Shown: positions 19,381-62,471 of the stretch, in pieces
Numbering within the stretch: position 1 is the first letter of the stretch
How the letters are laid out: each line of letters starts with the position of its first letter
From: Candidatus Shapirobacteria bacterium
GTDB taxonomy: Bacteria > Patescibacteriota > Microgenomatia > UBA12405
Reading direction: 5' to 3'
Length of the DNA: 64,000 nt
Assembly (NCBI GenBank): GCA_030698565.1
Contig: JAUYJS010000005.1
Span: 90,497 to 154,496 of the forward strand
Made by a program: the position numbers and the translations under genes
The notes under the pieces: generated by a model
The model's database searches: none
What the model was told of the DNA's origin: nothing
Seen by the model: the letters and a program-made list of their open reading frames with translations, nothing else

Positions 19381-19434
19381 TACCCGAACTTGGGATAACA
19401 ACATTTTTTTGAAATGACACAGGAAATGTAGACT
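19381..19434 (-). pseudogene. Startless fragment encoding ...KKCCYPKFG*, a copy of the SEC-C zinc-finger tail of secA
   Basis: On the minus strand, 19381-19412 aligns 25/32 nt with the real secA 3' end at 21059-21090, including a perfect 15-nt core TTGGGATAACAACA. In frame it reads TVYISCVISKKCCYPKFG-stop, preceded by an in-frame stop and no ATG. Confidence 0.45.
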
Positions 19435-19465
19435 GTTTAGATTTATCATTTCAAAAAGTTTTTTA

Positions 19466-19750
19466 TTAGAAATTATTATTATCTTTAATTTTGTTTAATA
19501 TTGATAAGGTGGCTTTTATGGAGGAATTATCTATGTTGCGTAGTTGAATCCGTTTACTAAATTGTTTACTAAGTGGAGTTAAAAATTCATCAGCCCATGA
19601 TGGAGTTAAAACTATAACACCTTCAAAGTCGATAATAACTTCTTCATTTTTATTAATTTGATTAAGCATTGGTCTGAAAGCTAATAAAGCCTCTTTTCCA
19701 GAAGGTCTTGATACTAAAGTAGTTCCAAATTTTTTAAGTTGTATAATCAT
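19466..19750 (-). CDS. Hypothetical protein, possibly DUF4325/STAS-like
   Basis: 94 aa starting MIIQLKKFGTTLVSRPSGKEALLAFRPML...IIDFEGVIVLTPSWADEF. The resemblance is weak and from memory. Confidence 0.35.
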   Translation of the reverse strand: MIIQLKKFGTTLVSRPSGKEALLAFRPMLNQINKNEEVIIDFEGVIVLTPSWADEFLTPLSKQFSKRIQLRNIDNSSIKATLSILNKIKDNNNF

Positions 19751-19769
19751 TGTGTTTTTTCAATTTTTA

Positions 19770-20075
19770 TTACAGCAAAACATCTCTGGTTTCGCAATAA
19801 ATTTGGGGATCTAATTCAAATCCGTTCTGAGATTGAACCCATTCAATCGCCATATTGCGGTAATTTGTTGCTGAATTCAATTTAGCTTCAACATCTGAAA
19901 ATTTATAAAATCGATGTCCATGTGGACCGGTCCTAACTGATGAAAACTTGCCTAATCTATCCCATCTTCTGAGAGTGTCTATAGAAATACCTAATAACTC
20001 AGAAACCTCTCCTATTTTTATTAATTTGGAACTCATAATTTTATTAATCTGTATAAATTTTATCAATCTATTCAA
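19770..20075 (-). CDS. MerR/excisionase-family helix-turn-helix DNA-binding protein
   Basis: KLIKIGEVSELLGISIDTLRRWDRLGKF is the HTH_17/MerR-type excisionase-family motif. Confidence 0.65.
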   Translation of the reverse strand: MNRLIKFIQINKIMSSKLIKIGEVSELLGISIDTLRRWDRLGKFSSVRTGPHGHRFYKFSDVEAKLNSATNYRNMAIEWVQSQNGFELDPQIYCETRDVLL

Positions 20076-20160
20076 ATCTGTGCAAGTTTACTATTAATCT
20101 ATATAAATCTATGCAAAATATATTAAAACTATGCAAATCTATGCAAAATTTAGACTTTTT
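20041..20160. repeat. Iteron-like cluster of short direct repeats (AATCTRTGCAAA x4 and TATTAATCTRTATAAAT x2)
   Basis: Read directly from the sequence: tattaatctgtataaat at 20042 and tattaatctatataaat at 20092; atctgtgcaag, atctatgcaaaa, actatgcaaa and atctatgcaaaa between 20076 and 20150. It lies immediately upstream of the excisionase-like HTH gene. Confidence 0.6.
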
Positions 20161-20249
20161 TTAAAAGTTGGAAATGTAAAGTTCGGGTATAAATGGGTTA
20201 AACTTCATAAATATTACTCATCTTATCTTTAATAAAGATATAATAAATT

Positions 20250-20468
20250 ATGAAAATATTAGTAATAGTTCATCCAAATTCAAAAAATCCAAGAGTTGAG
20301 AAAGATTTAGTAGAGATGTTGCATATTTATGTAAGTGCACCACCGTTGGAAGGAAAAGCTAACAAGGCTACAATCGAATCACTGGCTAAATTCTTGAAAG
20401 TTAAAAAATCGAAGATAATTTTAATACGAGGAGAAAAATCAAAGAATAAGGTATTTGAAATTGGTTGA
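20250..20468 (+). CDS. DUF167 (YggU/UPF0235) family protein
   Basis: 72 aa: MKILVIVHPNSKNPRVEKD...VSAPPLEGKANKATIESLAKFLKV matches the YggU-like family. Confidence 0.6.
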   Translation: MKILVIVHPNSKNPRVEKDLVEMLHIYVSAPPLEGKANKATIESLAKFLKVKKSKIILIRGEKSKNKVFEIG

Positions 20469-20506
20469 TTTTATAAAATTACTTGCTTTGTTGAAAGGAT
20501 TTAGAA

Positions 20507-20992
20507 CTAATTAATGTCATTTAAACTTTTAACAATATCTAAATCGTTTTTACCTCGTTTTTCTTTTCTGTAACCATCTTTAGAACTGAAAGTGTAGGCA
20601 TTAATAAAAGCTTGTTTATTCAGTGTTTTAATTAATATTCCTTCTTTGTGATGTATTTGAATATCCTTTTTTGGATCACAAATATTGTCCTTAATAAGAA
20701 TACTTTTTTTAGTAAAAGCAATTTTTAAATCCTGTTTATTTATAAATTCATGTTCTTTGCTGTCAATTAATTCAAAACCATTATTTTTCATAATTTTAAT
20801 CAGATCTAACCATTTATCGCTTAAATAAACATCCTCAACAAGAAGATCTATATCATCAAAATTTTTAAAATTACCAAGATAAATTGAAACTCCTAATGAA
20901 CCATACAAAATTGAATCTATTTTATTTTCTAATAAAAAATTATTTACTTTCTGATAGTTTTTTAAATCAACAGCCATGAGTGGATTATACAA
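20507..20992 (-). CDS. Minimal nucleotidyltransferase-fold protein
   Basis: GSLGVSIYLGNFKNFDDIDLLVED fits the GS-x(9-13)-DxD Pol-beta-type NTase signature. Confidence 0.5.
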   Translation of the reverse strand: MYNPLMAVDLKNYQKVNNFLLENKIDSILYGSLGVSIYLGNFKNFDDIDLLVEDVYLSDKWLDLIKIMKNNGFELIDSKEHEFINKQDLKIAFTKKSILIKDNICDPKKDIQIHHKEGILIKTLNKQAFINAYTFSSKDGYRKEKRGKNDLDIVKSLNDIN

Positions 20993-21058
20993 GAGTTTGA
21001 TTTCATTCTGAGGATAATCGTTTTGTTTACTTTGAATAAATTATTATTACGCTCTATT

Positions 21059-23719
21059 TTATCCAAGTTTGGGATAACAACACTTTTTATATTTTTTACC
21101 GGAACCGCAGGGACATGGATCATTGCGGCCGATGATTGATTTGTTTACTGGTGTCGTACTTTTCTTAGATATGCTTGTTTGATTTTCAGATTGATTAGCA
21201 TCATTTATGTCTCCCCTGCCCTCAACTATTGTTTCCGGAATTACATCGGTAGGCATTGAGATTGGTTCCAATCTAAATATTTTTCTGGCTAAATTATATT
21301 CAAATTGACGCATCAATTTTTGGAACATTTCATAACCTTCTTTTCTATATTCGATTAATGGATCTTTTTGAGCGTAACCTCGCAATCTGACACCGCTTCT
21401 TAAATCATCTAAAGCTGTTAAATGTTCCACCCAGAGTGGATCAAGAGTAGTAATAACTGCATAAGTTAAAATACTATTGGCAATATCTTTGCCAAAATAA
21501 GAAAGCCGTTGTTCCCATTGGTCTTTTATTGTTTTAGTCAAAAACTCATTAGGGTTTGGTTCATTTTGAAGTTGTTTTTTAATTTTTTGACGTTGATCGT
21601 CGTCCATGGGAAATATTTCAGAAAATTCCAAGGCTACTTTTTCAAAATTGATTGTGCCATCGGTATCTTCGAGACCGCTTTTCATTATGAAGTTAATTTC
21701 GGAAGAAAGATATTTACTAACTTCTTTCCAATTATTGTCGACCGAAAACTGACCATTATATAAAGACAAATCCCTTAGGGAATAAATTATTTTTCTTTGT
21801 TTATTGATAACATCGTCGTATTCGACCAAATTTTTACGGGCATCAAAATTAAAACCTTCGACTTTGACTTGAATTTGTTCGATGATTTTGGAAACTAGCG
21901 GATGAGTTAATGGAGCATCATCGGGCATATTGAACCGAGTCATCAGACCACTAATCTTTTCGCCACCAAAAATTCTCATTAAATCATCGTCAAGAGCGAC
22001 ATAGAATTGGGAAACACCCGGATCGCCTTGGCGGCCAGCACGACCTCTTAGTTGATTATCAATTCTTCGAGATTCATGTCTTTCGGTACCAATTACATAT
22101 AAACCACCTAAAGAAATTATTTTATCGTGATCTTTTTGCCACTCCTTTAGATCTACTCCATCTTTTGGTCCGCCTAAAATAATGTCAACGCCTCTACCGG
22201 CCATATTTGTGGCCACTGTTATGGCGCCAAATTTACCTGCTTTGGAAATTATTTTGGCTTCTGCTTGGTGATTTTTAGCGTTTAAAACTTGATAAGGCAG
22301 ACCTTTTTTTGCTAACAAAGAAGATATTGTTTCGTTTTTTTGAATAGAAGTAGTACCAATCAGTACTGGTTGGCCTAATTTGTGTAATTGTTCAATTTGA
22401 CTAACTATTGCCGTGTATTTGGCTCTTTGACTTTTGAAAATTAAGTCTTGAAAATCATTTCTCTGAATTAATCGTTGAGTAGGAATAGTAATTACATCAA
22501 GATTGTATATTTTTTTAAATTCTTCGGCTTCGGTCGCGGCAGTACCGGTCATGCCCGCTAATTTTTTATAAAGACGGAAATAATTTTGAAAAGTAATTGT
22601 GGCCCAAGTTTGAGATTCTCTTTGAACGGTAACATTTTCTTTGGCTTCAACTGCTTGATGAAGACCATCGGACCAGCGACGACCGTTCATAAGACGACCA
22701 GTGAATTCATCGACAATAATTATTTCATTGTCTTTGACAACATAATCTCTGTCTTTATGAAATAAAGCCGTAGCTTTGATAGCATTTTCAACATAATGGA
22801 TTGTCTCAAAAGATTCTTCGTATAGGTTTTTAACTCCTAAAATTCTTTCGATTTTCCTGATGCCATATTCAGAAAGAGTAGCTGATTTAGTTTTTTCATC
22901 AATTATATAATCAGTGGGCTGAAGTTGAGCCGCAATTTGGGCAAATTTATAATATTTATCGACTGGCTGATTGTTGGGTGAGGAAATAATTAATGGTGTT
23001 CTGGCTTCATCAATTAATACAAAATCGACCTCATCGACAACAGCAAAATTGTGGGGTCGCTGAACCATTTGATTAAAATCGGGCACCATGTGGTCGCGTA
23101 AATAATCAAAACCAAATTCATTGTTCGTACCATAAGTAATGTCAGTTTGATAAGCCTCTTTGCGAGAAACCGGCCTTAGGTGGGCCAAACGATCATCGAT
23201 TGTTTCGTTTGGATCAGTGAAATTGGGATCATAGATAAAAGATCCTTCGTGGATGATACAAGAAGTGCTAATTCCTAATTTCTGGAGTGCCTTTGGATAC
23301 CAACCAGCACCGACTCGGGTTAAATAATCATTTGGGGTAACAATGTGAACTCCCTGCCCAGAAAGCGAATTAAGATAAGCCGCAAAAACAACAGAATGAG
23401 TTTTACCTTCTCCGGTTCTTTGCTCGGAAATTGCTCCTTGGTGAAGTGAAATGGCCGACATCAATTGAACATCGTAAGCTCGTTCACCAATAGTTCTTTT
23501 AATGGTTTCACGGACAACAGCATAAGCTTCTGGAAGAATATCATCTAGGGTTTTGCCGTTATTTAATTGTTTTTTAAATTGGGTAGTTTTTTCGGAAAGT
23601 TTTTCATCACTTAAAGAAGAAAAATTTTTCTCTAAGCTATTTATTTTGTCGATAATCGCCTTATATGAGCTAATTCTTTTTCGATTTTCATCAAATAAAT
23701 TTTTTACGAAATTTAGCAT
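21059..23719 (-). CDS. secA: Preprotein translocase ATPase SecA
   Basis: DEAD-like motor motifs, 886 aa, and the C-terminal SEC-C zinc finger [14 protein letters not shown]. Confidence 0.95.
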
Positions 23720-23749
23720 ATTGATAATTATACCCTATTAAAATAGCCA

Positions 23750-23786
23750 GTCCCGACGGGCTCATTTGATTGAACCGAGTCGGGAC
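23750..23786 (-). terminator. GC-rich hairpin (GTCCCGAC ... GTCGGGAC) followed by a U-tract on the minus strand, between serS stop and secA start; candidate serS terminator
   Basis: An 8-11 bp inverted repeat with a roughly 21-nt loop, in an otherwise AT-rich spacer. On the minus-strand RNA it is followed by UGGCUAUUUUAAU. Confidence 0.4.
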
Positions 23787-23805: not shown

Positions 23806-25068
23806 TTAAGTGGTTTCGATAATATCGAAACTGGTAAATGGTTGTAAGACTTTGGGAATACAAATACTGCCGTCTTTTTGTTGGTGATTTTCAATAATGG
23901 CGATTACTGCCCTGTCGGTAATTACTGTGGCATTGAGGATATGAACATATTCATTTTTACCTTCGATTTTGGTTTTTATGTTTAGTCTTCTAGCTTGATA
24001 ATCACCGCAGTTACTGCACGATTGAGTTTCTCTAAATGTATCTTGTCCGGGAAACCAAGAATTGATGTCGTACATGCGTCGGTTGGGTTGGGGTAAGTCT
24101 CCGGTGCATGCTTTGACGACTTGATAGGGAATTTCCAAAGATTGCATTATTTCTTCTTCAATAGAAAGTAATTCCAAACACATGGCGTCAGAAATTTTAT
24201 AATCAGGAGTAGAAAAAACATTCATTTCAACTTTATTGAAAGAATGAACTCTAAAAACTCCTCGAGTATCTTTACCATAAGTGCCGGCTTCTCGCCTAAA
24301 ACAAGTAGAATAATTTACATATTTAATTGGTAAATTTTTGGAGTCTAAAATTTCGTCCATATGGTATGGCACAACAGAATGCTCGGAACTACTGATAAAA
24401 ATTAAATCATCTTCGGGGAAAGAATAATAAGCATTGTCTAGATTTTTGTTGCTAGTATAGCCCATTTTTTCTTCTGATTCTATTTTGACCATGGCGGGTG
24501 GAATCATGCCAACAAAACCTTTTTGGATAAGTTTTTGGAAGGCAAAATTCATGACAGCCATTTCTAAAACTGCGCCTTTGCCCTTGAAATAACCAAATCG
24601 AGAACCGGAAACTTTGGCGGCTCTTTTGACATCAATAATGTCGAGTTTTTCCCCTAAATCAATATGGTCGAGTGGTTTGAAATCAAATTTTGTTGGTTGA
24701 CTAAACTCGTGAAATAAAACATTTTCTGAATCGTCTTTACCAACAGGAACATCGGAGGCAACCATGTTGGGAAGTTCTTTTAGAATATTATTTTGTTTTT
24801 CTTCAAGTTCTTTTAATTCAGTTTCTTGGACTTTTAATTTTCCTTTTAAATCGGTTGCTTCTTTTAATTGATCATCGGTGGGCTTGCCTTTGAAATTTTT
24901 GGCTAATAAATTTTGTTGAGATCTAAGTTCTTCGACTTGAGTCAAAACCGATCTCCTTAATTTATCGATTTCTAAAATTTGATCTACTAATTTAGGACTC
25001 CGTTGACGGTTTATTAAGTTCTGCTTAACTAATTCGGGTTGTTGTCTAATTAAATTTATGTCGATCAT
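23806..25068 (-). CDS. serS: Seryl-tRNA synthetase
   Basis: N-terminal coiled-coil arm (MIDINLIRQQPELVKQNL...) and a class II core (FRREAG..., motif 3 region). 420 aa. Confidence 0.9.
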   Translation of the reverse strand: MIDINLIRQQPELVKQNLINRQRSPKLVDQILEIDKLRRSVLTQVEELRSQQNLLAKNFKGKPTDDQLKEATDLKGKLKVQETELKELEEKQNNILKELPNMVASDVPVGKDDSENVLFHEFSQPTKFDFKPLDHIDLGEKLDIIDVKRAAKVSGSRFGYFKGKGAVLEMAVMNFAFQKLIQKGFVGMIPPAMVKIESEEKMGYTSNKNLDNAYYSFPEDDLIFISSSEHSVVPYHMDEILDSKNLPIKYVNYSTCFRREAGTYGKDTRGVFRVHSFNKVEMNVFSTPDYKISDAMCLELLSIEEEIMQSLEIPYQVVKACTGDLPQPNRRMYDINSWFPGQDTFRETQSCSNCGDYQARRLNIKTKIEGKNEYVHILNATVITDRAVIAIIENHQQKDGSICIPKVLQPFTSFDIIETT

Positions 25069-25152
25069 GAAACTAAGATAGTTTATCAGAATTTATGCAA
25101 AAAATTACCGTAAAATAAACGTAACTCGAAGTGTTTTATCGGTATCTTTTGT

Positions 25153-25713
25153 TTAGATATTTTTGTACATCAAAATACTATCGACAAATTTGTTTCTATG
25201 TTTTATGCCTTTTGGTAAGATGCCGTATTCCTTAAAACCGTTTTTTAAATATAATTTTTGAGCAATCGGATTGTTACTAAATACACTCAAAACTACTATT
25301 TTTAAGTTTATTAATTTTGCTTTGGCTTCTTTAAGTACGGTTTTTAGTAAAATGTTGCCAATACCCTCTCCACGACAACTTTTTGAAACTATAATTCCAA
25401 AACTTCCCACATGACTGGAAACATTGCCATCCATGTCGATACTACTGCTACCAACAATTTTATTGTCAATTAAAGCAAGTAAAAAAATAGACTTGTTGTT
25501 TAATATACCCTCGACTTTTGAATCAACATATTTTTGTTCTTCTTCTAAAGTCAACTGTTCTCCCTGAAAAATAACATATGTTTTTTCTTGAGAAATTAGA
25601 TTAATAAAATTTAGCTGATTTTCAGCATCTTTTTTATTTATATATCTGATGACTAAATCGTTTCCCTTTTTGGTTTTGCCTTGGTATAGAATTTGTTCTG
25701 ATATTTGTTTCAT
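25153..25713 (-). CDS. GNAT family N-acetyltransferase
   Basis: GIIVSKSCRGEGIGNILLKTVLKEAK is the acetyl-CoA binding motif A (R/Q-x-x-G-x-G/A). Confidence 0.8.
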   Translation of the reverse strand: MKQISEQILYQGKTKKGNDLVIRYINKKDAENQLNFINLISQEKTYVIFQGEQLTLEEEQKYVDSKVEGILNNKSIFLLALIDNKIVGSSSIDMDGNVSSHVGSFGIIVSKSCRGEGIGNILLKTVLKEAKAKLINLKIVVLSVFSNNPIAQKLYLKNGFKEYGILPKGIKHRNKFVDSILMYKNI

Positions 25714-25721
25714 ATAATTAT

Positions 25722-25991
25722 TTATAGTCCTAAATAGTGTTGGAGTTTAAGACTTTGCATTAATAAATATTCGGCTTTAACATTGGCTGTATCTGTGTTG
25801 TTTTTAAGATATTCGATATCTACAATTTCTGAAATTTTAGGATCAATTTTTGTTAATTTTGGAAAATTATTTAAAATATTTTGAATAAAAACACAATTTT
25901 TTGGATTATTATCCTGGCTTCTGACCAAAAACATAACTGATCTTTTTAAATCAGCGGAAATATTTAATAATTCTAGTTTTGATTTATCCAT
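25722..25991 (-). CDS. Hypothetical small protein
   Basis: 89 aa. It lies 8 nt upstream of the GNAT gene and overlaps the next gene by 8 nt. Confidence 0.3.
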   Translation of the reverse strand: MDKSKLELLNISADLKRSVMFLVRSQDNNPKNCVFIQNILNNFPKLTKIDPKISEIVDIEYLKNNTDTANVKAEYLLMQSLKLQHYLGL

Positions 25992-26328
25992 AAATAAATT
26001 CTGGAAAATATTTTTTAACTATACTTGTAAACTTTTCTCTAATTACCGGATCAAGTATTTCAGTGCTCGGATTTGAATCTGGTCTAATATTGGCAACGGC
26101 AGAGCATTCTATAATTTTAGAAACTAAATCGATTCCTCCTCCCCAAATATTTTTTTGCAGTGATCCAGAATCAATTAGTATTTTTTCAATATCAGCATGA
26201 AGTCGCGAGCCGCCATACAAAATTTCTTTATCAATATCTGCGACCAATTTTATATATCCATCGAATTCTTCGGTTAGTTTTTTTAGTTCGTTTGGAGTTG
26301 GTGAATGGTTGATTTTTAAAATAGCCAT
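25984..26328 (-). CDS. Hypothetical protein
   Basis: 114 aa, no motif recognised. Confidence 0.35.
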   Translation of the reverse strand: MAILKINHSPTPNELKKLTEEFDGYIKLVADIDKEILYGGSRLHADIEKILIDSGSLQKNIWGGGIDLVSKIIECSAVANIRPDSNPSTEILDPVIREKFTSIVKKYFPEFIYG

Positions 26329-40436: not shown

Positions 40437-40807
40437 AACAACTTAATTATTTAAAAGGTAAAAATGGTGAGTTAATTGCCAAAAACTATCTTTTGGAAAA
40501 AGATTATAAATTTGTAGAGCAGAATTACAAAAATTATTTGGGCGAAATTGATTTGATTATGAGTTTTAGAGATATTTTAGTTTTTGTAGAAGTTAAATTA
40601 AAAGTCGGCAATAGATTTGGTTTACCAGAGGAAATGATTAACAGAAACAAAATTAGTAGAGTCAAAAGAGTGGCTGAAAGTTATTTGGTGTTGAATCCAA
40701 TAATATCTCAAAATTATAAAAAATACAGATTGGATGCGATTTGTGTGGTGGTCAATGAATTGAATTGTATCAAAAGAATTAATCACTACAAAAATATTGA
40801 ATTTTAA
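40433..40807 (+). CDS. yraN: YraN-family (UPF0102) endonuclease
   Basis: GELIAKNYLLEKDYKFVEQNYK...GEIDLIM...LVFVEVK is the YraN signature. It overlaps comM by 4 nt. Confidence 0.75.
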   Translation: MKQLNYLKGKNGELIAKNYLLEKDYKFVEQNYKNYLGEIDLIMSFRDILVFVEVKLKVGNRFGLPEEMINRNKISRVKRVAESYLVLNPIISQNYKKYRLDAICVVVNELNCIKRINHYKNIEF

Positions 40808-41693
40808 TATGAGATATTGGAAAAAATGGCCTATTAACCAGATCAATGTAGATGATGAAAGATTTCCGAAATATTTAAAATCGATTAAAACATGTCCTAA
40901 AAAATTATTTTTTAGAGGTAATTGGAACTCAAATATTTTTGAAAAAACTATTGGCGTGGTTGGCAGTAGACGAATTACCAGATATGGCCGTGATGTAATT
41001 GCAAAATTTGTACCAACTTTTGTCGGTAATAAAATTACAATAATTTCTGGATTCATGTATGGAGTCGACAGTGAAGCTCATAAAACATGTGTTGAAAACG
41101 GTGGAAAAACGATAGCTGTTTTAGGCGGTGGACTTAATTATATTTATCCTCCGGAAAATGATAATTTATATTCTTTGATTTTAGAAAACGGCGGATTAGT
41201 ATTGTCTGAATACGAAGCTGATTTTAAACCAACTTTATGGAGTTTTCCTCAAAGAAATAGAATTGTATCGGCCTTATCGACCATAGGAATTCTGGTTATT
41301 GAAGCTGGTTTAAATTCAGGCAGTTTAATTACGGCAAAAATTGCCAAAAAGCAGGGTAAAAAAATATTTTCAATTCCGGGTCAAATTAATTCTTCAACGT
41401 CTACTGGAACTAATTGGTTAATTAAAAATTATAATGGGATTCTGGTGAGCAGTCCTGATGATATTTTGGAGAGTAGTTTTAAAATTAACGCTACTCAAAT
41501 TGATTTGTTTGAGCCGGATTTAAGTGAGATTGAAAGAAAAATAATCGGTTTATTGAAGAGTGAAGAATTAAGCGTCGACGAATTGTCGATTAAATTAAAT
41601 TTAGCAATTGCTGATATTTCAATTAATTTATCAATGTTATTAATGAAGAATTTGATTGAGGAAGAAGCGGGGAAAGTTTATTTAAAAAATTAA
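40797..41693 (+). CDS. dprA: DNA processing protein DprA (Smf)
   Basis: The Rossmann core GVVGSRRITRYG...ISGFMYGVDSEAHKTCVENGGKTIAVLGGGLNYIYPPEN is present. It overlaps yraN by 11 nt. Confidence 0.85.
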   Translation: MNFNMRYWKKWPINQINVDDERFPKYLKSIKTCPKKLFFRGNWNSNIFEKTIGVVGSRRITRYGRDVIAKFVPTFVGNKITIISGFMYGVDSEAHKTCVENGGKTIAVLGGGLNYIYPPENDNLYSLILENGGLVLSEYEADFKPTLWSFPQRNRIVSALSTIGILVIEAGLNSGSLITAKIAKKQGKKIFSIPGQINSSTSTGTNWLIKNYNGILVSSPDDILESSFKINATQIDLFEPDLSEIERKIIGLLKSEELSVDELSIKLNLAIADISINLSMLLMKNLIEEEAGKVYLKN

Positions 41694-42830
41694 TTAAAGA
41701 TACGGTGCCCAATTAGCGATCGGGGCGACATTGCCAACAACAAAGTTGATGGCATATAGAATAATGGCTGGCAAAAGTAATAGAAAGACGACCTTGAAAT
41801 ATGTTTTGGTTAATGGGTTTTTGTAAGCTAAAAATAAGAAAGGGTAAACCGGAGCAATGTAGCGACTAATATCGCGATGAGCTACTAATAAAGTAGCAAA
41901 AGTAAAGACGACCGGATAAACGGCGATTATATCGAATTTATACTTTTTGATTAATCGATAGACACCATAAAGCGCCAAAAGATAAATATAAACTACATCC
42001 TCTAACCAAATAGTATTTATCCAAGATTTGGTGCTGATAAAAACTAAATATGGCAATTTGTTTAAATGAAAATTATCGCCACTATGAAAATAAGCCCAGA
42101 AGTCACCTGTTTCTAATTTGTAAAAGTAAAATATGCCAAGAACAGTCAATGGCATTAGAACGAACGCCCAATATTTTTTCAAGACCTGTGCAAGGTTTTT
42201 GGTTTTAATAAGTTCATAAATAGCTAAAATGCCATACGATATTAAAAGAAGGATTCCAGGACTTTTGAATAATTGACTCATGGCAGCAAAAACCGCCGCG
42301 AGAAAATATTTTTTATTTTTAAAATAGATGATCGAGGCTAAGGTACTAAATATAAACCAGCTTTCGGGAGCGCCGATTTGACGTAGGACAAATAATCTGG
42401 CGGGGAAGAAAATCAAAAGTGCGGCAAGCCAGAAAGCTTTTGATTCTTTCATAAACATTTTGAAAAATTCAAAACTGACCAATGAGAGAATGATAGAACC
42501 CAAAAGAGAAGAAAATAACATGGCTTTGGGGCCGGTGGTAAAGAGATTAAGGGCACTGATCAACAAGGGGAACCCGGGTAAATGGGCTGGGTAATATTCA
42601 AGAGGTTGGGGTAAAGAAAAATTTGGCCCGATACAGTTCTTGTCATAGCCGCACTTGGAAATGACCATGTAGTTGGGACCATCGTAATTAGCAAAGACAG
42701 TTTCCAAAGTAACATTGGGAAAACCAATTTTGGAAGGAATGTTTTTGTAGAAGATAAACCAGAATAAAAGTGTCGAAGTAAGAGTAATTAAGGCTAAGAC
42801 ATAATATTTTGAAAATTTGGTAAAATGCAT
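41694..42830 (-). CDS. Polytopic membrane protein, possibly a GT-C-like glycosyltransferase
   Basis: 378 aa with about 10 TM helices. No diagnostic motif is seen. Confidence 0.4.
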   Translation of the reverse strand: MHFTKFSKYYVLALITLTSTLLFWFIFYKNIPSKIGFPNVTLETVFANYDGPNYMVISKCGYDKNCIGPNFSLPQPLEYYPAHLPGFPLLISALNLFTTGPKAMLFSSLLGSIILSLVSFEFFKMFMKESKAFWLAALLIFFPARLFVLRQIGAPESWFIFSTLASIIYFKNKKYFLAAVFAAMSQLFKSPGILLLISYGILAIYELIKTKNLAQVLKKYWAFVLMPLTVLGIFYFYKLETGDFWAYFHSGDNFHLNKLPYLVFISTKSWINTIWLEDVVYIYLLALYGVYRLIKKYKFDIIAVYPVVFTFATLLVAHRDISRYIAPVYPFLFLAYKNPLTKTYFKVVFLLLLPAIILYAINFVVGNVAPIANWAPYL

Positions 42831-42851: not shown

Positions 42852-42923
42852 GGCCCCATCGTCTAGTGGTTCGGACACCAGGTTCTCATCCTGGTAACCG
42901 GAGTTCAATTCTCCGTGGGGTCA
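42852..42923 (+). tRNA. tRNA-Glu (anticodon CUC)
   Basis: Cloverleaf read manually: acceptor GGCCCCA/TGGGGTC, D-arm GTC-TAGTGGTTCG-GAC, anticodon stem CCAGG/CCTGG with loop TTCTCAT (CTC), T-arm CGGAG-TTCAATT-CTCCG, discriminator A. No CCA is encoded. Confidence 0.8.
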
Positions 42924-42986
42924 CACTTTTTTTTATAGGTCAAAAACGTGAAGATACCCTATATTTTGCTTATTTTCACGGTTATG

Positions 42987-43015
42987 TTGACAAAATCGTG
43001 AATAATCTCTATAAT
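42987..43015 (+). promoter_or_regulatory. Consensus sigma70 promoter TTGACA-17nt-TATAAT, 8 nt upstream of the Fic ATG (leaderless transcript likely)
   Basis: TTGACA at 42987-42992 and TATAAT at 43010-43015 with an exact 17-nt spacer. CGTGAA half-sites lie at about 42957 (inverted as TTCACG at about 42975) and 42997, overlapping the promoter. Confidence 0.5.
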
Positions 43016-43023
43016 TTGAGCAT

Positions 43024-43902
43024 ATGACTAAAATATCTAATGTTTTTAATAAAATAAATTCGCTTCGTCAAAGATATTATCAAGCTTTTAATGGTAAAGA
43101 TGCCCTTATTCAGCTTATTAGCGAGTCGGAAGTGGCTGAACAAGTTTATAATTCTAATGCTATTGAAAATAGTACTCTGACTCTTGAAGAAACTGAAAAA
43201 ATTCTTTTACAGATTGATTTGGACAGGTATATTACTGAACGGGAAATTTTTGAAGCTAAGAATTTGGCTCGAGTGGTTATTTATATAGATAAGAAAGCTA
43301 AAGAACAAGAACTTAATTTGGAGATGATTTTATCGCTTCATAAAATGCTGATTTCTAATATTCGAGATGATATTGCTGGAAGATTTAGAAAAGAAAATGA
43401 ATTTGTTCGAGTCGGTAGTTATATTGCTCCAAACCCAAAAGAAGTGATTGAGAGGCTTGAAAAAATGTTATCTGAATATAATGCCAGTAATAATGAAAAT
43501 ATTATTAAGCGTATTGCTCGTTTACATTTAACATTTGAATGTACTCATCCTTTTATTGATGGTAATGGTCGAATTGGTAGAGTTATTAATAACTATTTAT
43601 TAATAAGGGAGGGATTTGTACCTATAAATATAAAGTTTATTAATCGACAAAAATATTATGATGCTTTTAAGGAGTTTGAAGAAAAACAGACAACAACAAT
43701 TATGGAAGATATAGTAGGAAAAGCATTAACTAATAGTTATTATAAAAGATTAGCTTATTTAGAAGGTAAAAAAATCATCACTTTAATCGATTATGCTAAT
43801 AATAATAAACTTTCACACTCAAACCTTTTAAATAAGGCTGGTAGACAAACTATTGAAGCTTTTTTAGAAAAAAATGTTTGGAAAATTGGGGTTGATCAGT
43901 AA
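43024..43902 (+). CDS. Fic/Doc family protein (putative AMPylator) with an N-terminal autoinhibitory motif
   Basis: The canonical Fic motif HPFIDGNGRIGR, that is HxFx(D/E)GNGRxxR, is intact. The N-terminal SNAIEN matches the (S/T)xxxE(G/N) inhibitory-helix motif. Confidence 0.85.
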   Translation: MTKISNVFNKINSLRQRYYQAFNGKDALIQLISESEVAEQVYNSNAIENSTLTLEETEKILLQIDLDRYITEREIFEAKNLARVVIYIDKKAKEQELNLEMILSLHKMLISNIRDDIAGRFRKENEFVRVGSYIAPNPKEVIERLEKMLSEYNASNNENIIKRIARLHLTFECTHPFIDGNGRIGRVINNYLLIREGFVPINIKFINRQKYYDAFKEFEEKQTTTIMEDIVGKALTNSYYKRLAYLEGKKIITLIDYANNNKLSHSNLLNKAGRQTIEAFLEKNVWKIGVDQ

Positions 43903-43981
43903 AAACTTGTCCATTTTTCTGTATAAATTATATATACAATATTTTCGTTAATAAAATAAATAATTTCAAAATTAAATATTA

Positions 43982-44008
43982 GAGTTCGATTCTCCGTGGG
44001 GTCACACA
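43982..44008 (+). repeat. attR-like direct repeat of the tRNA-Glu 3' end
   Basis: GAGTTCGATTCTCCGTGGGGTCACAC (43983-44008) against GAGTTCAATTCTCCGTGGGGTCACAC in the tRNA (42901-42926), 25/26 identical. Confidence 0.65.
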
Positions 44009-44133
44009 TTGGGACTAAGGTACTACTAAATGGTGGTTTTATTCCTAAATATGGGGCTAATTTTGGAGTTCCAGAAGTTAAATCTGAGTATGTAGGTGGA
44101 CTATCAAAGATAAGACCAAAGAAGGCAGCTCTT

Positions 44134-45300
44134 TTAAGTAGCTGTTTTAAATTCGTTTAAGATGGTTTCCCTAACCATTTTTGAATTTTCATTATCAGCA
44201 CCTAAATGTGCTTGGTTATGCATAGAAAAAACCTTGTTCAAAATTCCACTTTTACGGTTTTTATTGGTGGTCCTTCTTAAATCACCGGGGAGTATTTGTC
44301 TTCCTCTCTTAACGAAATATCTAACCATTTTTAGAACTTCTTGGTCTTTATAATTTATTAAAATTGTTTTAATAACTCTTTCGATTTCGGCCGGTTCTCC
44401 TGTTCCTTTTGATCTTTGAATTTCCATGAAAGCCGTACTAATTAAAAGTTCAACAATGTCGATTGCCTTTTGTTCTCTTTCAATAATTTTCTTTACCCTA
44501 CCTTTGGCAATATCTATCTCTCCAACCTTTAATGTTATGTTTTCGGCTTCCATTTCTAATTTAAAAGCTTTTTCTTTCTTTACAATTTCAACCATTTGTT
44601 GATGCAAGGAATCTGTTCTTCTTTCTGACGGAGTAAGAATTATATCGGGAATATTTAGAACTGGATTTGAAACTTTCACTGCTTCTATTTCGGGGTGTTC
44701 TGAATCAGGTGTTGTCTTTATTGTTTCAGCATTTTGAAACATAACATCGCCTACGATGTCTCCTATTGGTCCAAATTGTTGGTGAACTGAGTCTATATAT
44801 TTTGTTTCCTCTGCAAGCGCCTGAAATCTATCTATCGCTTGTAATTTGGATGATCCAATTTTGTTTGCTGCAAAAATATCGGCAATAGCAATTCCTTTTG
44901 TGAGTATTTCAGGTTTTTTAATTACTATACCGTCTTTATATGGACCGTAATATTCGGATAGCCCGAGCCTTTCCACATTTACAGCAATTTCTTCTGGTGT
45001 GCCGCGTCGTCTCATAGGTTCTGCATGAAACACAAACCCTAATAATTTACCAAAATGATTTTTAGCCATACTTATAAAATCCTGTACATAATGATCGTCC
45101 CATTGTCTTAGGATCCTATCACCCCAAACATCTATTTTATCTATAAAACTAGAATGCATGTCGTAGACCAACTCGCCGTTTATGGTTTTCAGCTTTCCAC
45201 CGTAAACTCCAACTGTGCTCTCATAATCACTCGACGGAAGTGAATTTTTCATTAATTTATTTGATGCTTCTGAAATTCCTCTAGCTATTCTTTCTGCCAT
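44134..45300 (-). CDS. Hypothetical protein (388 aa), slightly GC-richer than its surroundings
   Basis: Long uninterrupted ORF with no recognisable motifs. It is adjacent to the Fic islet. Confidence 0.4.
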   Translation of the reverse strand: MAERIARGISEASNKLMKNSLPSSDYESTVGVYGGKLKTINGELVYDMHSSFIDKIDVWGDRILRQWDDHYVQDFISMAKNHFGKLLGFVFHAEPMRRRGTPEEIAVNVERLGLSEYYGPYKDGIVIKKPEILTKGIAIADIFAANKIGSSKLQAIDRFQALAEETKYIDSVHQQFGPIGDIVGDVMFQNAETIKTTPDSEHPEIEAVKVSNPVLNIPDIILTPSERRTDSLHQQMVEIVKKEKAFKLEMEAENITLKVGEIDIAKGRVKKIIEREQKAIDIVELLISTAFMEIQRSKGTGEPAEIERVIKTILINYKDQEVLKMVRYFVKRGRQILPGDLRRTTNKNRKSGILNKVFSMHNQAHLGADNENSKMVRETILNEFKTAT

Positions 45301-57542: not shown

Positions 57543-57551
57543 ATTCGAGTA

Positions 57552-58910: not shown

Positions 58911-58935
58911 TTGTTATTTAATTTATAAATTAGTT

Positions 58936-59334: not shown

Positions 59335-59344
59335 AAGTTTAACT

Positions 59345-60397
59345 TTAGCAATTTAAAAATTCGCATTCAAGACTCAAAAGTTCATCAACAGATTTTAGCC
59401 TGATTAAATCTGCTCGAAGATGCTTGGCGTTGGTTAATCCGCTAGTATACAAAAGGAAATGTTTTCGAAGACTATCAAAACAGCGTTTTGGAAAAACATC
59501 GGAATATGTTTGAGTGTGCAACAACATAGCAGAAAATCTTTCCTGGGGCAAAGCAGTGTAATTAGTAAACACCCATGGATTGCCCATGGCGGCTCGACCG
59601 ATCAATACTCCATTAACTCCGTATTTTTGGGCCATTTCTATGGCTTGAGATTTTGATTGAATATCGCCATTTCCCCAAATTAGAGTTTTAGTATTTTTGG
59701 CTAATTTAACAGCTAAGGCAATATTGTCCCAATCAGCGATACCAGAGTAACCTTGTTTTAAGGTACGACCATGTAGAGTAATAAAATCTAAGTCATGCGA
59801 CAAAAGGTGAGGGAACCAGGACTCAACTGTGGGCTTATCGACTCCCAATCTGGTTTTTACTGATATGGTGGGTATAATTTTTTCTCGATCTGATTTTAGA
59901 CCAGTATATTTAAGGTTTCTCTCAATTACTTTTAATGTTTTTAAATTTAAGTCAATATCTTTTATTGTAATTTTATTTTCTAACCAATCAGAAACTGCTT
60001 TTTGAACAGATTTGATAATTTTTGAGGCTAATTCTGGCTGGTTTATTAGAGCGGCGCCACTTCCGTTTTGAGTGACAGTTTTGGCTGGGCAGCCCATGTT
60101 GACATCAACACCATCAAAACCCAAATGACATAAAACTAAAGCAGCCTTATAAAAACCTTCGGGATCCTTGCCAAATAGTTGCCCAATGATCGGCCTTTCT
60201 TCAGTTTTATACAGAAGAATGTCGTAAAGTTTTACTCCACCACGAGTTAATCCCTCGGCACTAGCAAATTCAGTGAAAGTAACATCGGGCTTGGCGATTT
60301 TGGTTTGGACCAAACGAAAAGGTTCGTCGGTTATACCATCCATTGGTGAGAGGCCAACAATAAAATTATCTTTAATAAATTCTTTAAAACTTTTCAT
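59345..60397 (-). CDS. dus: tRNA-dihydrouridine synthase
   Basis: TIM-barrel FMN motifs: LSPMDGITDEPFR, a catalytic Cys region (NMGCPA) and KTRLG. Confidence 0.85.
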   Translation of the reverse strand: MKSFKEFIKDNFIVGLSPMDGITDEPFRLVQTKIAKPDVTFTEFASAEGLTRGGVKLYDILLYKTEERPIIGQLFGKDPEGFYKAALVLCHLGFDGVDVNMGCPAKTVTQNGSGAALINQPELASKIIKSVQKAVSDWLENKITIKDIDLNLKTLKVIERNLKYTGLKSDREKIIPTISVKTRLGVDKPTVESWFPHLLSHDLDFITLHGRTLKQGYSGIADWDNIALAVKLAKNTKTLIWGNGDIQSKSQAIEMAQKYGVNGVLIGRAAMGNPWVFTNYTALPQERFSAMLLHTQTYSDVFPKRCFDSLRKHFLLYTSGLTNAKHLRADLIRLKSVDELLSLECEFLNC

Positions 60398-60406
60398 TTA
60401 TAAAAA

Positions 60407-60973
60407 TTATTTCTTCTTTTTAAATCTTGTTTTACTGGCAAACTTGGCACCGATTTTGGAACCGAAATGACGAGTGACATATACGGTCTGACGCACATGC
60501 TTGGCGGAAAAATTTTTGTCAACGGGTTTGTTTTTTTTGTCACCAGAAGACTTCTCTTTATTGAATCCAAAACGCGGTTTATAGTCTTCTTTGGGCCGAT
60601 CTGGGTTTTGAGCCAGACCACTTTCCGAACTAAAACTACTTTTGTGTTTTGTTTTTTTGTAGCGTTTCTGAACAGCTTCTTCATGACGCAACCTACCCTC
60701 TTCAGTTAAATAAGGATCGGGTTGAGCGTAGTCCACAATGATATTGAGATCACCTATTCTGGTATGATGATATTTTTCTTTGGCTCTGATGGCATCGTCT
60801 AAATTTTCATATTCAACGTAGCCCATTCCCCGACTTCTACCCCAGCGATTTTTGATGATTTGCACAGAAATCACCTTACCTTCGGTAATAAATAACGAAA
60901 GAAGTTCTCCTTCTGTGGTTTTATAAGGGATACTACCTATAAATAATCTTTTTTGTGGTGTGTTATTGCTCAT
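60407..60973 (-). CDS. RRM-domain RNA-binding protein with a basic C-terminal tail
   Basis: RNP2 LFIGSIP and RNP1 RGMGYVEY, followed by a K/R-rich low-complexity tail. Confidence 0.7.
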   Translation of the reverse strand: MSNNTPQKRLFIGSIPYKTTEGELLSLFITEGKVISVQIIKNRWGRSRGMGYVEYENLDDAIRAKEKYHHTRIGDLNIIVDYAQPDPYLTEEGRLRHEEAVQKRYKKTKHKSSFSSESGLAQNPDRPKEDYKPRFGFNKEKSSGDKKNKPVDKNFSAKHVRQTVYVTRHFGSKIGAKFASKTRFKKKK

Positions 60974-61027
60974 TAAGTTGATGTATTTTACTAAAAATAT
61001 TGTAATTTTGCTTGCTACAATAAATTT

Positions 61028-61681
61028 GTGGTTAATTTTATCAAATTAATTTTAGGATCACTGCAAACTAATTGTTATCTTCTTTTTGATGATGGGACAA
61101 AAAAATGCTTTATTATCGACCCGGCAAACGAGTCGGATCTTATTAGTGAAACAATAGAATTAAAGAAATTAAAACCTGTTGGGGTTTTGCTGACACATGG
61201 TCATTTTGATCATGCGATGGCGGCAATGGATCTAAAATTAATGTATAAAATTCCTATATACGCAAATGAAAAAGATTTGTTTTTGTTAAAAAGAATTAAA
61301 AAAACGGCTGAGTTTTTTTTGAAAATGCCGGTTGAGGTTTTGGATGTTGAAAAAGTAGATATTGATTTGGAAAAATTAAGCGAAATAAATTTGGGAGAAG
61401 AAAAAATTGAAGTAATTAAAACTCCGGGTCATACATCTGGTAGTGTTTGTTTTTATTCTGCAAAGCAGAATATTTTATTTTCAGGTGATACATTATTTGC
61501 TGAAGGTTTAAGAGGTGGAACGGATCACCAATATTCATCTACAAAAGATATTTATAAAAGTATTTATAAATTAATGCAATTGCCACGAGGCACAACTGTA
61601 CTGTCTGGTCACGGAGAGGAGACAACTATTGGTTCCGAATCGGAAAGGTACGTGTTTAAGGATGAGAATAAAGAAAATTAA
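61028..61681 (+). CDS. MBL-fold metallo-hydrolase (glyoxalase II-like)
   Basis: LLTHGHFDHAM is the HxHxDH motif. A downstream His/Asp is in GHTSGS. Confidence 0.8.
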   Translation: MVNFIKLILGSLQTNCYLLFDDGTKKCFIIDPANESDLISETIELKKLKPVGVLLTHGHFDHAMAAMDLKLMYKIPIYANEKDLFLLKRIKKTAEFFLKMPVEVLDVEKVDIDLEKLSEINLGEEKIEVIKTPGHTSGSVCFYSAKQNILFSGDTLFAEGLRGGTDHQYSSTKDIYKSIYKLMQLPRGTTVLSGHGEETTIGSESERYVFKDENKEN

Positions 61682-61830
61682 CGATTTTTTTCAATTTGAT
61701 TGTAATTGAGATATAATTTTGATATTCTTGCTCGGTTAAATAGTTACCAATACTCTATTGTCCCAAAAGAACACAAGCTTTGGTAATTATCCCCGTCGTC
61801 CCGCCAGGACTAGGGGTTTTGACAATTTAA

Positions 61831-61901
61831 TACCCCGTCGTCTAACGGTAGGACAGCTGGCTCTGAACCAGCTAATTGTGGTTCGAATCCATACGGGGTA
61901 A
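61831..61901 (+). tRNA. tRNA-Gln (anticodon CUG)
   Basis: Manual fold: acceptor TACCCCG/CGGGGTA (U1-A72, as in bacterial tRNA-Gln), D-arm GTC/GAC, anticodon stem GCTGG/CCAGC with loop CTCTGAA (CUG), T-arm TGTGG-TTCGAAT-CCATA, discriminator A. Confidence 0.7.
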
Positions 61902-61943
61902 CAACATTTTAATGTTTTAATAATTTTTAGGTAAAATGAATAT

Positions 61944-62351
61944 ATGTATAAAATATCCGTAAAAGTATCACCGTCAAGTATCGAAGGGGAAGGTGTATTT
62001 ACTAATGAAGACATACCTAAAAATAATATTGTTTGGATATATAAATCAGGATATGACTTAATAATGTCAAAAGAAGATTTTAAAAAATTACCTTCCGAAG
62101 AAAAGTCTCGGATAGAAAAAATCGGATACCTTTCACCTTGGTCTAATAGATGGGTTTTCCCTCCTGAAAATGATGCTGCACAATTTACTAATCACAGTAG
62201 AAAAAATAATTTATCAACAGTTTATAATAAAAAAATTTCTGAAGAACCCTATTTTATCGCTAATAGGGATATAAGAGCAGATGAGGAACTGACTAATAAT
62301 TATTACGAGTTTGATTTATTAATTCAAAAAACCAAGCCTGATTGGGCATAA
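61944..62351 (+). CDS. Minimal SET-domain protein (putative lysine methyltransferase)
   Basis: IEGEGVFTNEDIPKNNIV is the GxG SET-N motif, AQFTNHSRKNNL the NHS motif and ADEELTNNYY the ELxxxY post-SET region. At 135 aa it is the size of viral and bacterial minimal SET proteins. Confidence 0.75.
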   Translation: MYKISVKVSPSSIEGEGVFTNEDIPKNNIVWIYKSGYDLIMSKEDFKKLPSEEKSRIEKIGYLSPWSNRWVFPPENDAAQFTNHSRKNNLSTVYNKKISEEPYFIANRDIRADEELTNNYYEFDLLIQKTKPDWA

Positions 62352-62448
62352 ATAGTTCTAATGAACTAACCATTCGACTCCAAATTTTATATTTTAATTT
62401 GAATCTCCTCTTGCGAGAATTTCCGAAACTCTACTGAGTTTTTTCCTA

Positions 62449-62471
62449 CATACGGGGTAACTATTTTAATA
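62449..62471 (+). repeat. attR-like direct repeat of the tRNA-Gln 3' end
   Basis: 13-nt exact match CATACGGGGTAAC, plus downstream ATTTTAAT shared with the tRNA flank. Confidence 0.55.

Follow-up and report, generated by a model that had tools for sequence, protein, structure and literature searches.

Integrase-less islets bounded by duplicated ends of secA and two tRNA genes in a Candidatus Shapirobacteria genome

Genomic islands and islets at the 3' ends of tRNA genes are flanked by repeats of 16 to 20 bp and often harbour functional or cryptic integrase or transfer genes (PMC2704930). In streptococci, cis-mobilizable elements (CIMEs) keep both attL and attR, have no integration or transfer genes, and rely on the recombinase of another element; they are decayed integrative and conjugative elements (ICEs) or integrative and mobilizable elements (IMEs), and their movement is by accretion with an ICE that enters at the same site (PMC5704250). 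In the streamlined genomes of Dehalococcoides, the 3' end of ssrA is repeated, with 11 copies in strain VS, between blocks of accessory genes, and integration genes are found only in the first blocks (PMC2764846). Here, we describe three small islets in a 64,000-nucleotide stretch of a Candidatus Shapirobacteria genome (contig JAUYJS010000005.1, positions 90,497 to 154,496; hereafter, the window), which lie at the 3' ends of secA, a tRNA-Glu gene, and a tRNA-Gln gene; the tRNA-Glu islet carries a Fic gene and the tRNA-Gln islet a SET gene. To our knowledge, gene exchange in the small symbiotic bacteria of the Candidate Phyla Radiation (CPR) is poorly understood, and few mobile elements have been delineated there; our literature search found no paper on tRNA-linked islands in the CPR. 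The sequence-only reading, in which these loci were first described, had proposed an undescribed mode of accessory-gene traffic, which was overstated, since islets, CIMEs, and the ssrA-bounded segments of Dehalococcoides have already been described.

All three architectures are present where they were first described, and each consists of a repeat of a host gene end and a small cargo without a recombinase. The repeats match at 29 of 34 (secA), 27 of 29 (tRNA-Glu), and 13 of 13 positions (tRNA-Gln), all three host genes are intact, and the junctions are genuine duplications of gene ends, which ordinary redundancy of the sequence does not explain. As the sequence-only reading had also claimed, the cargo contains no integrase: none of its six open reading frames (ORFs) belongs to an integrase or mobility family in Pfam, NCBIfam, or PADLOC. 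L-numbers (L005, L182, and so on) designate the metagenome loci used for comparison, and the 160 related loci referred to below are SecA and Lon loci. L182 and L199 belong to metagenome-assembled genomes from runs SRR22388223 and SRR22388063.

The secA gene (21059 to 23719, minus strand) encodes an intact protein of 886 aa with five SecA Pfam domains, including the SEC-C motif at residues 865 to 883. Its live 3' end, which is attL-like (21055 to 21088, minus strand), encodes ...KKCCYPKLG-stop, and a displaced 3' end, an attR-like remnant (19376 to 19409, minus strand), encodes ...KKCCYPKFG-stop. The last 30 nt of secA together with the 4 nt downstream are identical to the remnant at 29 of 34 positions, with a 14-nt exact core, TGTTGTTATCCCAA. 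Both copies are in frame (KKCCYPK[L/F]G-stop) and 1645 nt apart, and the 5 mismatched positions flank the identical core on both sides. The stop codon of the remnant lies 10 nt before the start codon of the DHH gene, which is the spacing found at the empty sites of L093, L107, and L118. Among the 42 related loci that show both secA and DHH, the two genes are directly adjacent in 23 (estimated gap of at most 100 nt) and separated by inserts of 0.4 to 4.3 kb in another 18. The remnant ending, CCYPKFG-stop, is the commonest among the closest relatives, whereas the live ending, CCYPKLG-stop, occurs in 0 of 80 related secA loci; the live ending was probably supplied by the inserted element. An ancestral ending in the remnant, a foreign live tail, and mismatches on both sides of the core together make up the hybrid-site signature of site-specific recombination. 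We therefore read the secA tails, from their sequence, as the outcome of conservative site-specific recombination with an element-borne imitation of the gene end, rather than of slippage or simple target duplication.

The secA tail appears to have been used more than once. In L095, a Shapirobacteria-like contig, a single prolyl-oligopeptidase (S9) gene (12682 to 14739) stands inside the secA tail (12676 to 14792), with the live tail on one side of it, a second copy of the tail at 14766 on the other, and no accompanying integrase. The L095 remnant and its downstream sequence, TAAACAATT, equal the tail of L111, which has no peptidase gene, and the live tail of L095 differs. The same pattern thus recurs with other cargo, and recombinase-less cassettes have struck the secA tail on at least two independent occasions. 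A third, inverted copy of the secA tail at 20163 to 20192 was dropped as a candidate, as it is an 11-nt match of a kind expected about once per ten such searches.

The cargo of the secA islet comprises four genes. Next to the remnant, a DUF4325 (STAS-like) protein of 94 aa (19466 to 19750, minus strand; Pfam 3e-8) precedes a MerR/HTH_17 DNA-binding protein (19770 to 20036, minus strand; Pfam MerR 1e-12, PADLOC mad1 3e-12), whose probable start is the ATG at 20036 (the ORF finder gave a TTG at 20075). The sequence-only reading had called this region an Xis-HTH patch. A helix-turn-helix (HTH) protein is indeed present, but the Xis label does not hold: the region is a four-gene composite, the HTH is best assigned to MerR (1e-12), and the excisionase model reaches only 2.5e-4 on it, below the cut-off; a link to the N-terminus of IS607 is likewise faint and below the cut-off. 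The MerR gene is 88% (amino acid) and 89% (nucleotide) identical to that of L121, where it directly follows the secA stop and secA itself is 73% identical. A DUF4325 gene with 69% amino acid identity also stands beside a MerR gene in L206, and there the pair lies away from secA. On the secA-proximal side, a DUF167 protein of 72 aa (YggU family; 20250 to 20468, plus strand; Pfam 1e-19, TIGR00251) and a 161-aa ORF (20507 to 20992, minus strand) complete the cargo; L121 lacks this half between secA and the MerR gene. The 161-aa ORF has no Pfam match, only a weak LnuC-like match (1e-3) and faint nucleotidyltransferase similarity, and no homologue of it was found in the 160 related loci.

Upstream of the MerR gene, repeated TTTGCATAGATTT motifs (20042 to 20152; repeat families D2 and D4) are kept in L121. 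Three to four copies of TTTGCATAGATTT fall at 20092 to 20152 and are conserved at positions 2890 to 2990 of L121. These repeats look operator-like and may serve autoregulation of the MerR gene.

The second islet lies at an intact tRNA-Glu(CUC) gene (42852 to 42924, plus strand; ARAGORN; Rfam, 57 bits), which stands beside a 378-aa gene (41694 to 42830) in an arrangement conserved in relatives. The first repeat copy, the attL core (42901 to 42929, plus strand; repeat family D1), runs from the T-arm to the 3' end of the tRNA, and the second, a tRNA-Glu 3' fragment forming the attR core (43982 to 44010, plus strand), is identical to it at 27 of 29 positions, 19 nt of which are an exact run. The trailer of the second copy, CACATTGGGAC, resembles the sequence after tRNA-Glu in L030. 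Between the copies are a leader (42927 to 43023, plus strand) with CGTGAA/TTCACGG repeats and a perfect TTGACA-17-TATAAT promoter at 42987 to 43015 (12 of 12 positions), the Fic gene (43024 to 43902, plus strand; 292 aa), and a non-coding right arm (43903 to 43981, plus strand), which terminates in AAATATTAG beside the tRNA fragment. Fic/Fido proteins have the active-site motif HxFx(D/E)GNGRxxR and may carry an inhibitory (S/T)xxxE(G/N) motif in the same protein. The translation holds the active-site motif HPFIDGNGRIGR and the N-terminal inhibitory motif SNAIEN, which places it in the inhibitory-helix Fic family. Its matches (Pfam Fic 4.5e-23; PADLOC PDC-S04 2e-34 and SoFic 5e-28) place it with candidate phage-defence families, and they suggest a possible role in defence. 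The Fic and SET domains that the sequence-only reading had named as eukaryote-like effectors are both present, but neither is specifically eukaryote-like here, and the Fic protein matches candidate phage-defence families.

The Fic unit recurs in minimal form in other genomes. In L182, it stands at a tRNA-Glu(UUC) gene, with a leader 96% identical to that of the window, a fic gene 94% identical in nucleotides (95% in amino acids), and a right arm 82% identical, followed by a 25-nt exact copy of the end of its own tRNA; the flanks beyond the repeat are about 47% identical, i.e., random, and the neighbouring class-I aminoacyl-tRNA synthetase is 64% identical. In L212/L213, the unit is again at tRNA-Glu(UUC), is 86% identical in nucleotides (leader 86% and right arm 72% in L212), and has unrelated flanks. 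Homology of the window with both L182 and L212 stops at the second repeat copy, at 44005 to 44006, and homology with L191 to L198 begins at 42927. The right-hand fragment of L212 is unlike the local tRNA and closer to the window type, which argues that the fragment travels with the cassette. The Fic gene is downstream of tRNA-Glu in none of the relatives of the window with this tRNA in view.

The best 120 Fic homologues are 82 to 95% identical to the window protein, and their source names are Peregrini-, Berkel-, Jackson-, Komeili-, Azam-, and Shapirobacteria (six CPR classes). Seven distinct Fic contexts were sampled out of thousands of homologues of at least 80% identity, and in six of them a tRNA gene lies no more than about 500 nt away; these tRNA genes are Glu-CUC, Glu-UUC (in two contexts), Leu-UAG, Leu-GAG, and Gln-UUG. 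A Fic copy in one of the six contexts adjoins a type IV secretion-like cluster (L176 to L180), with no integrase in view.

Several further observations concern Fic loci and their tRNA-Glu sites. In L176 to L181 and L208 to L211, the Fic gene (6001 to 6885 in L176 and 6668 to 7546 in L208) is preceded by an ORF of 73 to 74 aa. The repeat of about 48 nt in L176 and L208 is imperfect, direct, and not a tRNA end (ATAGGTTTCCATCAG.TTGATAAA.TG…AGGTG), and its right-hand copy runs into a module of about 60 nt that is present in L183 too. A tRNA-Leu origin of the right-end module (L176, L183, and L208) was considered and rejected, as the alignment score was no better than that of shuffled sequences in 5 of 6 tests. 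The right flank of L176 and the left flank of L213 share the gene order SBP_bac_5-SecG-holin-transglutaminase-LexA-TP_methylase; one lineage thus appears to carry two copies of the Fic cassette about 15 kb apart, one at the type IV-like cluster and tRNA-Gln(UUG) and the other at tRNA-Glu(UUC). Other accessory genes directly follow tRNA-Glu in L051 (ORF 118 to 1527, opposite strand) and L030 (ORF 337 to 1614); by eye, one of these ORFs resembles a reverse transcriptase (YADD motif) and the other a DNA methyltransferase.

The third islet lies at an intact tRNA-Gln(CUG) gene (61831 to 61902, plus strand; ARAGORN and Rfam), which follows an MBL-fold gene, as in more than 25 relatives. The last 13 nt of the tRNA, CATACGGGGTAAC (61890 to 61902, plus strand; repeat family D3), are repeated exactly (13 of 13) at 62449 to 62461 (plus strand), where the displaced tRNA 3' end is 45 nt before the gene at 62506 to 63054. 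The match grows to 16 nt if a 3-nt indel is allowed, and both copies are followed by TTTTAAT. The SET cassette (61903 to 62363, plus strand) consists of a 41-nt leader, the SET gene (61944 to 62351; 135 aa), and the 12 nt beyond it, and is about 90% identical in nucleotides to that of L199; a non-coding right arm (62364 to 62448, plus strand) is absent from L199. The Pfam match to SET (4.3e-13) covers residues 15 to 120, and the translation contains FTNHS and ELTNNY, which correspond to the NHS and ELxxxY motifs of the SET fold and assign the protein to the SET-domain methyltransferases. A 100% identical protein, found by similarity, is MDP4009759.1 from a Candidatus Shapirobacteria metagenome-assembled genome (MAG; 232-kb contig); an exact look-up of the Fic and SET proteins of the window returned no match.

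As with secA, the history of this site can be followed in relatives. In L005, the orthologue of the gene at 62506 to 63054 starts 44 nt after tRNA-Gln with no SET gene between them, compared with 45 nt after the second repeat copy in the window. L199 is syntenic with the window (Trx-Dus-RRM-MBL-tRNA-Gln), and its SET gene starts 4 nt after the tRNA; SET is 86% identical in amino acids and about 90% in nucleotides between the two, compared with 43 to 63% for five flanking host proteins, and the two tRNA-Gln genes differ in their acceptor and T stems. Presence/absence polymorphism among relatives, which the sequence-only reading had named beforehand as a test, is thus borne out by the 23 empty secA sites and, for tRNA-Gln, by L005.

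A hairpin just upstream of tRNA-Gln (61789 to 61815) repeats the first 10 to 12 nt of the tRNA, CCCCGTCGTC, and then closes on itself (…GTCC-loop-GGAC-TA-GGGG). It occurs in three genomes, i.e., the window, L021 (at about position 118, reverse strand), and L178 (7030 to 7075), upstream of tRNA-Gln(CUG) or tRNA-Gln(UUG); L176 lacks it, although it is otherwise the same as L178 as far as this point. Compared with shuffled sequences, the fold has z = -4.8 in L178 and z = -0.4 (not better) for the window copy. This hairpin may represent a terminator, a mini-element resembling a tRNA, or the footprint of an insertion. In L033, a second T-arm-like sequence, TGTGGTTCGAATCTC, is located 10 nt downstream of the tRNA-Gln 3' end and could be another tRNA gene or a 3' fragment.

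The window surrounding the islets has a G+C content of about 33% and is dense with housekeeping genes, such as secA, serS, lon, argS, era, obg, rlmN, dus, dprA, uvrC, and others. The nearest SecA and Lon relatives are MAGs labelled Candidatus Shapirobacteria or Patescibacteria (Lon at most 84% and SecA at most about 79% identical), and Lon identity between Shapirobacteria and Levybacteria goes down to about 51 to 54%. An Rfam scan of the window found the two tRNAs (tRNA-Glu and tRNA-Gln) and nothing else. G+C minima of 0.242 and 0.274 (vs about 0.33) fall on two of the islets. Two more minima are found at 25001 to 26000 (0.271) and 8001 to 9000 (0.287); the former spans a GNAT acetyltransferase gene (25153 to 25713) and two small ORFs (25722 to 26328).

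The repeats were compared with the background of the window. Random pairs of 45-mers from the window share at least 12, 13, and 14 nt with p = 9e-4, 3e-4, and 1e-4, respectively, and 0 of 20,000 pairs reach 15 nt. For the 3' ends of 75 window ORFs, the best 34-nt downstream match besides secA is 25/34 (secA, 29/34), and the best exact downstream seed besides that of secA (14 nt) is 13 nt, in one spurious ORF tail, followed by four tails with 12 nt; the exact seed of secA by itself is only just above the background. Matches of 12 nt occur in 2 of 59 upstream controls for tRNA ends. The secA and tRNA-Glu repeats are clear outliers against this background. The 13-nt tRNA-Gln repeat alone is marginal, at about 0.01 to 0.02 for a 2-kb search, and is rescued by the comparative geometry of the site. 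A scan of 57 other tRNA genes in related loci found no repeat of 13 nt or more of the gene's own 3' end within 6 kb downstream, and of 23 related secA loci that either have an insert or show no DHH gene, only 1 has a second copy of the tail. The density of islets in the window is unusual for the lineage, in agreement with the sequence-only reading.

We favour, with somewhat more confidence than doubt, the reading that minimal att-cargo-att cassettes, i.e., genomic islets of a CIME-like kind, are the moving unit and depend on a recombinase supplied in trans. A short DNA molecule would carry a gene with its own promoter, as in the Fic leader, together with a site that mimics the end of a host gene, and this site would recombine conservatively with the 3' end of secA, tRNA-Glu-CUC, or tRNA-Gln-CUG. 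The host gene would remain intact, and its original 3' end would come to lie beyond the cassette, reduced to a short remnant. At the tRNA genes, the exchange point would be the last few nucleotides, and the tRNA would be wholly host-derived, because the window, L182, and L199 each retain the acceptor-stem and T-stem differences specific to their host. At secA, the exchange point would be the TGTTGTTATCCCAA core, with the element providing the last three codons and the stop. The recombinase would be encoded off the cassette, by a helper element or the chromosome, and is most likely a tyrosine integrase; it presumably acts in trans, and the cassettes may still be able to excise. The cargo would consist of self-contained accessory or defence-type genes, as far as their domain matches indicate. 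Conservation is much higher in the cargo than in the host flanks (Fic 95 vs 64%, SET 86 vs 43 to 63%, and MerR 88 vs 73%), which points to a horizontal origin. The sequence-only reading had raised the idea of a family of cassettes mobilised in trans. Mobilisation in trans gains support from the recurring minimal units at L182, L212/L213, and L199 and from L095, whereas a single family does not, as the islets share no arms or core and use three targets.

Several results weigh against this reading. Neither the arms nor the cores of the three islets share a common sequence above chance, and the three targets are different; the islets are, on their sequences, best regarded as instances of one architecture and not as one sequence family. 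No exact empty tRNA-Glu site was found, and the next gene (44134 to 45300) has no homologue in the 160 related loci. The repeats of L182 and the window differ at 7 to 8 of 27 positions although the cassettes are 94 to 96% identical, which is unpredicted by a fixed element-borne site: the L182 copies are identical to each other at 25 of 25 positions and match the local tRNA-Glu(UUC), and those of the window match the local tRNA-Glu(CUC). Possible explanations of this mismatch are copy-to-copy conversion, selection for a working tRNA, or exchange at the outer edge with fast turnover of the tRNA-like arm of the element; the right arm is already the most divergent part of the cassette (82% in L182). 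The boundaries of the Fic gene also vary, as L176 and L208 have the direct repeat of about 48 nt and L191 has none, so the gene does not move by one route only. The SET cassette of L199 has no right-hand repeat, which implies that some copies are simply fixed. Neither an excised circle nor polymorphism between strains was seen, and all comparisons are with other species or metagenome contigs.

The search for a recombinase counts on both sides. The lack of one near the cassettes agrees with the favoured model, and that model requires an integrase, which may lie elsewhere in the genome. No recombinase or transposase was found by Pfam among the roughly 60 ORFs of the window, and across the window together with the 160 SecA and Lon loci, a motif search, which is crude and insensitive, found the box II motif of tyrosine recombinases in 0 of 2061 ORFs. 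Precomputed Pfam lists of the genes within 6 to 8 kb of Fic, SET, or MerR contained no integrase in 38 loci, and none of these 38 loci carrying cargo genes holds a full-length relative with an integrase. A family of about 375 aa downstream of both tRNAs in relatives was considered as an integrase beside the sites and rejected; it reads by eye like LytR-CpsA-Psr and has no box II motif.

Viral sequences were searched as well. IMG/VR contained no relatives of Fic or SET and one distant MerR-like match, on a contig of densely overlapping ORFs, which looked unrelated. Matches to the secA tail in viral contigs were rejected as chance, and those to the tRNA-Glu 3' end were whole phage tRNA genes, with the exception of L164. 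In this 98-kb contig (IMGVR_UViG_3300010885_080919), 35 nt from the 3' part of a tRNA-Glu(CUC) of the Shapirobacteria type lie outside any tRNA gene (L164 727 to 748) and agree fully with the tRNA of L004; no integrase is present within the 1.6 kb examined. A phage may use this stretch as its attachment site for the same tRNA, which would make it a lead to a helper integrase.

A sequence shared by two of the sites was also noted. The tRNA-Gln junction at 61895 to 61913 (GGGGTAACAACATTTTAAT) and the antisense of the secA remnant at 19394 to 19409 (GGGATAACAACATTTTTTT) have 12 nt in common, TAACAACATTTT, in the same orientation relative to each cassette. A single shared core for the three sites was nevertheless rejected, as the TAACAACATTTT overlap has p of about 9e-4 per pair and about 0.01 after 12 comparisons and the arms share nothing; it is kept as a lead only.

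The alternative that survives best, which we consider unlikely, is independent decay, in which the islets are immobile stumps left by internal deletions in larger islands or prophages that once had their own integrase. Decay is the textbook fate of tRNA-borne islands, and CIMEs are defined as decayed ICEs or IMEs (PMC5704250). The loss of the right-hand repeat in L199 and the composite nature of the secA islet, whose DUF167/ORF161 half is missing in L121, fit this view; the sides downstream of these tRNAs and of secA are variable in relatives and include ordinary metabolic genes, and the tRNA-Glu(CUC) 3' part in the viral contig L164 indicates that phages using this tRNA may exist. However, at least three genomes carry the minimal Fic unit, complete with its conserved non-coding leader and a right arm that runs up to the repeat, at two different tRNA-Glu isoacceptor genes, and repeated identical pruning is unlikely. 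The non-coding spaces of 97, 79, 41, and 85 nt are too small for integrase pseudogenes, and no integrase remnant was found in the sampled loci.

Spread without any recombinase appears improbable. Cassettes would here enter by DNA uptake and homologous or homology-facilitated illegitimate recombination; the highly conserved end of a tRNA gene or of secA would anchor the exchange, and the repeats would be by-products. DprA is encoded in the window (dprA, 40797 to 41693; Pfam), and the targets are among the most conserved sequences of the genome. The repeats of the window and L182, which match their own local tRNA and not each other, are easier to explain if host sequence was copied or converted, and the several boundary types of the Fic gene also fit. 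The homology arms, however, would be a mere 13 to 50 nt. The donor and recipient tRNAs differ, yet the foreign DNA begins at most 4 nt from the tRNA end in both the Fic and SET islets, and such a precise boundary is typical of a site-specific crossover. The mismatches on both sides of the identical core in the secA tails, together with a foreign replacement tail, and the non-local fragment retained in L212 also speak against it.

Target-site duplication by a casposon or transposon was rejected because terminal inverted repeats are lacking, the fragment in L212 differs from the local tRNA, and the secA tails differ with an ancestral remnant; L182, with its 25 of 25 local repeats, would fit such a duplication if taken alone. 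The reading that the repeats are coincidences in an AT-rich genome around normal lineage-specific genes, which we find barely credible, can point to exact seeds of 13 to 14 nt near the top of the background and to the 12-nt matches in the upstream tRNA controls, but it is already contradicted for secA (29/34 vs a background maximum of 25/34) and for tRNA-Glu (19 nt exact, p well below 1e-4), and the remnants lie at the spacing expected of the original ends from the next host gene (10 nt and 45 nt), and the homology with foreign cassette copies ends at the repeats.

Minimal cassettes mobilised in trans, which we favour, would give gene exchange in the CPR concrete terms. The docking sites are defined as the 3' termini of tRNA-Glu and tRNA-Gln and the secA tail, and the passenger as a Fic cassette of about 1 kb that is 82 to 95% identical across CPR classes. 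A housekeeping protein gene, secA, can act as an attachment site more than once, and incoming DNA then exchanges its last codons. Excision circles, empty sites, and the missing recombinase can now be searched for in existing read sets; the predicted junction of a Fic circle (right arm-core-leader) is ...TTCAAAATTAAATATTAGAGTTC[G/A]ATTCTCCGTGGGGTCACACTTTTTTTTATAGGTCAAAAACG..., and the predicted empty tRNA-Glu site is the tRNA followed by ATTGGGACTAAGG.

More tentatively, and with doubt prevailing, we suggest that the CPR/Patescibacteria share a pool of promoter-bearing, single-gene, recombinase-less cassettes (Fic, SET, the regulator pair, and the peptidase) that are inserted into and removed from tRNA and secA 3' ends by recombinases encoded elsewhere. 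If true, such a pool would be functionally like integron cassettes or pdif modules, with the ends of essential genes as docking sites, and would account for genes that are nearly identical in different CPR classes, whose core proteins are otherwise only about 50% identical.

The islets share with classical genomic islands a conserved gene 3' end, target-derived direct repeats, lower G+C, accessory cargo, and presence or absence among relatives. With regard to what characterises islets, the target genes are intact, the cargo begins within 4 nt of the tRNA ends, the repeats are derived from the targets, and the cargo is absent from the secA and tRNA-Gln sites of relatives; an encoded integrase or mobility gene is the one feature lacking. 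Unlike classical islands (10 to 200 kb), the islets are 0.5 to 1.6 kb, hold one to four genes, and have no integrase or transfer genes, and one of their targets is a protein-coding gene, secA, whose last codons are replaced. Similar to CIMEs, they keep attL and attR without integration and transfer genes; they are, however, much smaller, the Fic unit recurs in minimal form across genomes, and neither an ICE origin nor accretion was seen. The Dehalococcoides system resembles them in its streamlined genome and in the repeated 3' end of a structural RNA gene that bounds accessory genes, but it forms tandem blocks at one site with a cognate integrase cluster beside ssrA, whereas the window has three separate single-cassette sites with no integrase in view.

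Two recombinase-less systems offer further comparison. Integron cassettes are single-gene units of about 0.5 to 1 kb without a recombinase of their own, which are inserted by a recombinase encoded elsewhere. Unlike these, the islets have no attC-like imperfect palindrome or inverted repeat at their ends and no IntI or attI in the window, the Fic cassette has its own 12/12 promoter, and the attachment site is the 3' end of a host gene. Integrative mobile elements exploiting Xer (IMEX elements) and pdif modules are small, recombinase-less, and Xer-dependent and have short recombination sites; by eye (no pattern search was run), the islet repeats show no dif-like 11-6-11 arms such as those of pdif modules, and the three sites differ. 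The islets thus differ from known islands, CIMEs, and the Dehalococcoides segments in their single-gene size, the lack of a cognate integrase nearby, the recurrent minimal unit, the use of a secA tail with codon replacement, and the CPR host.

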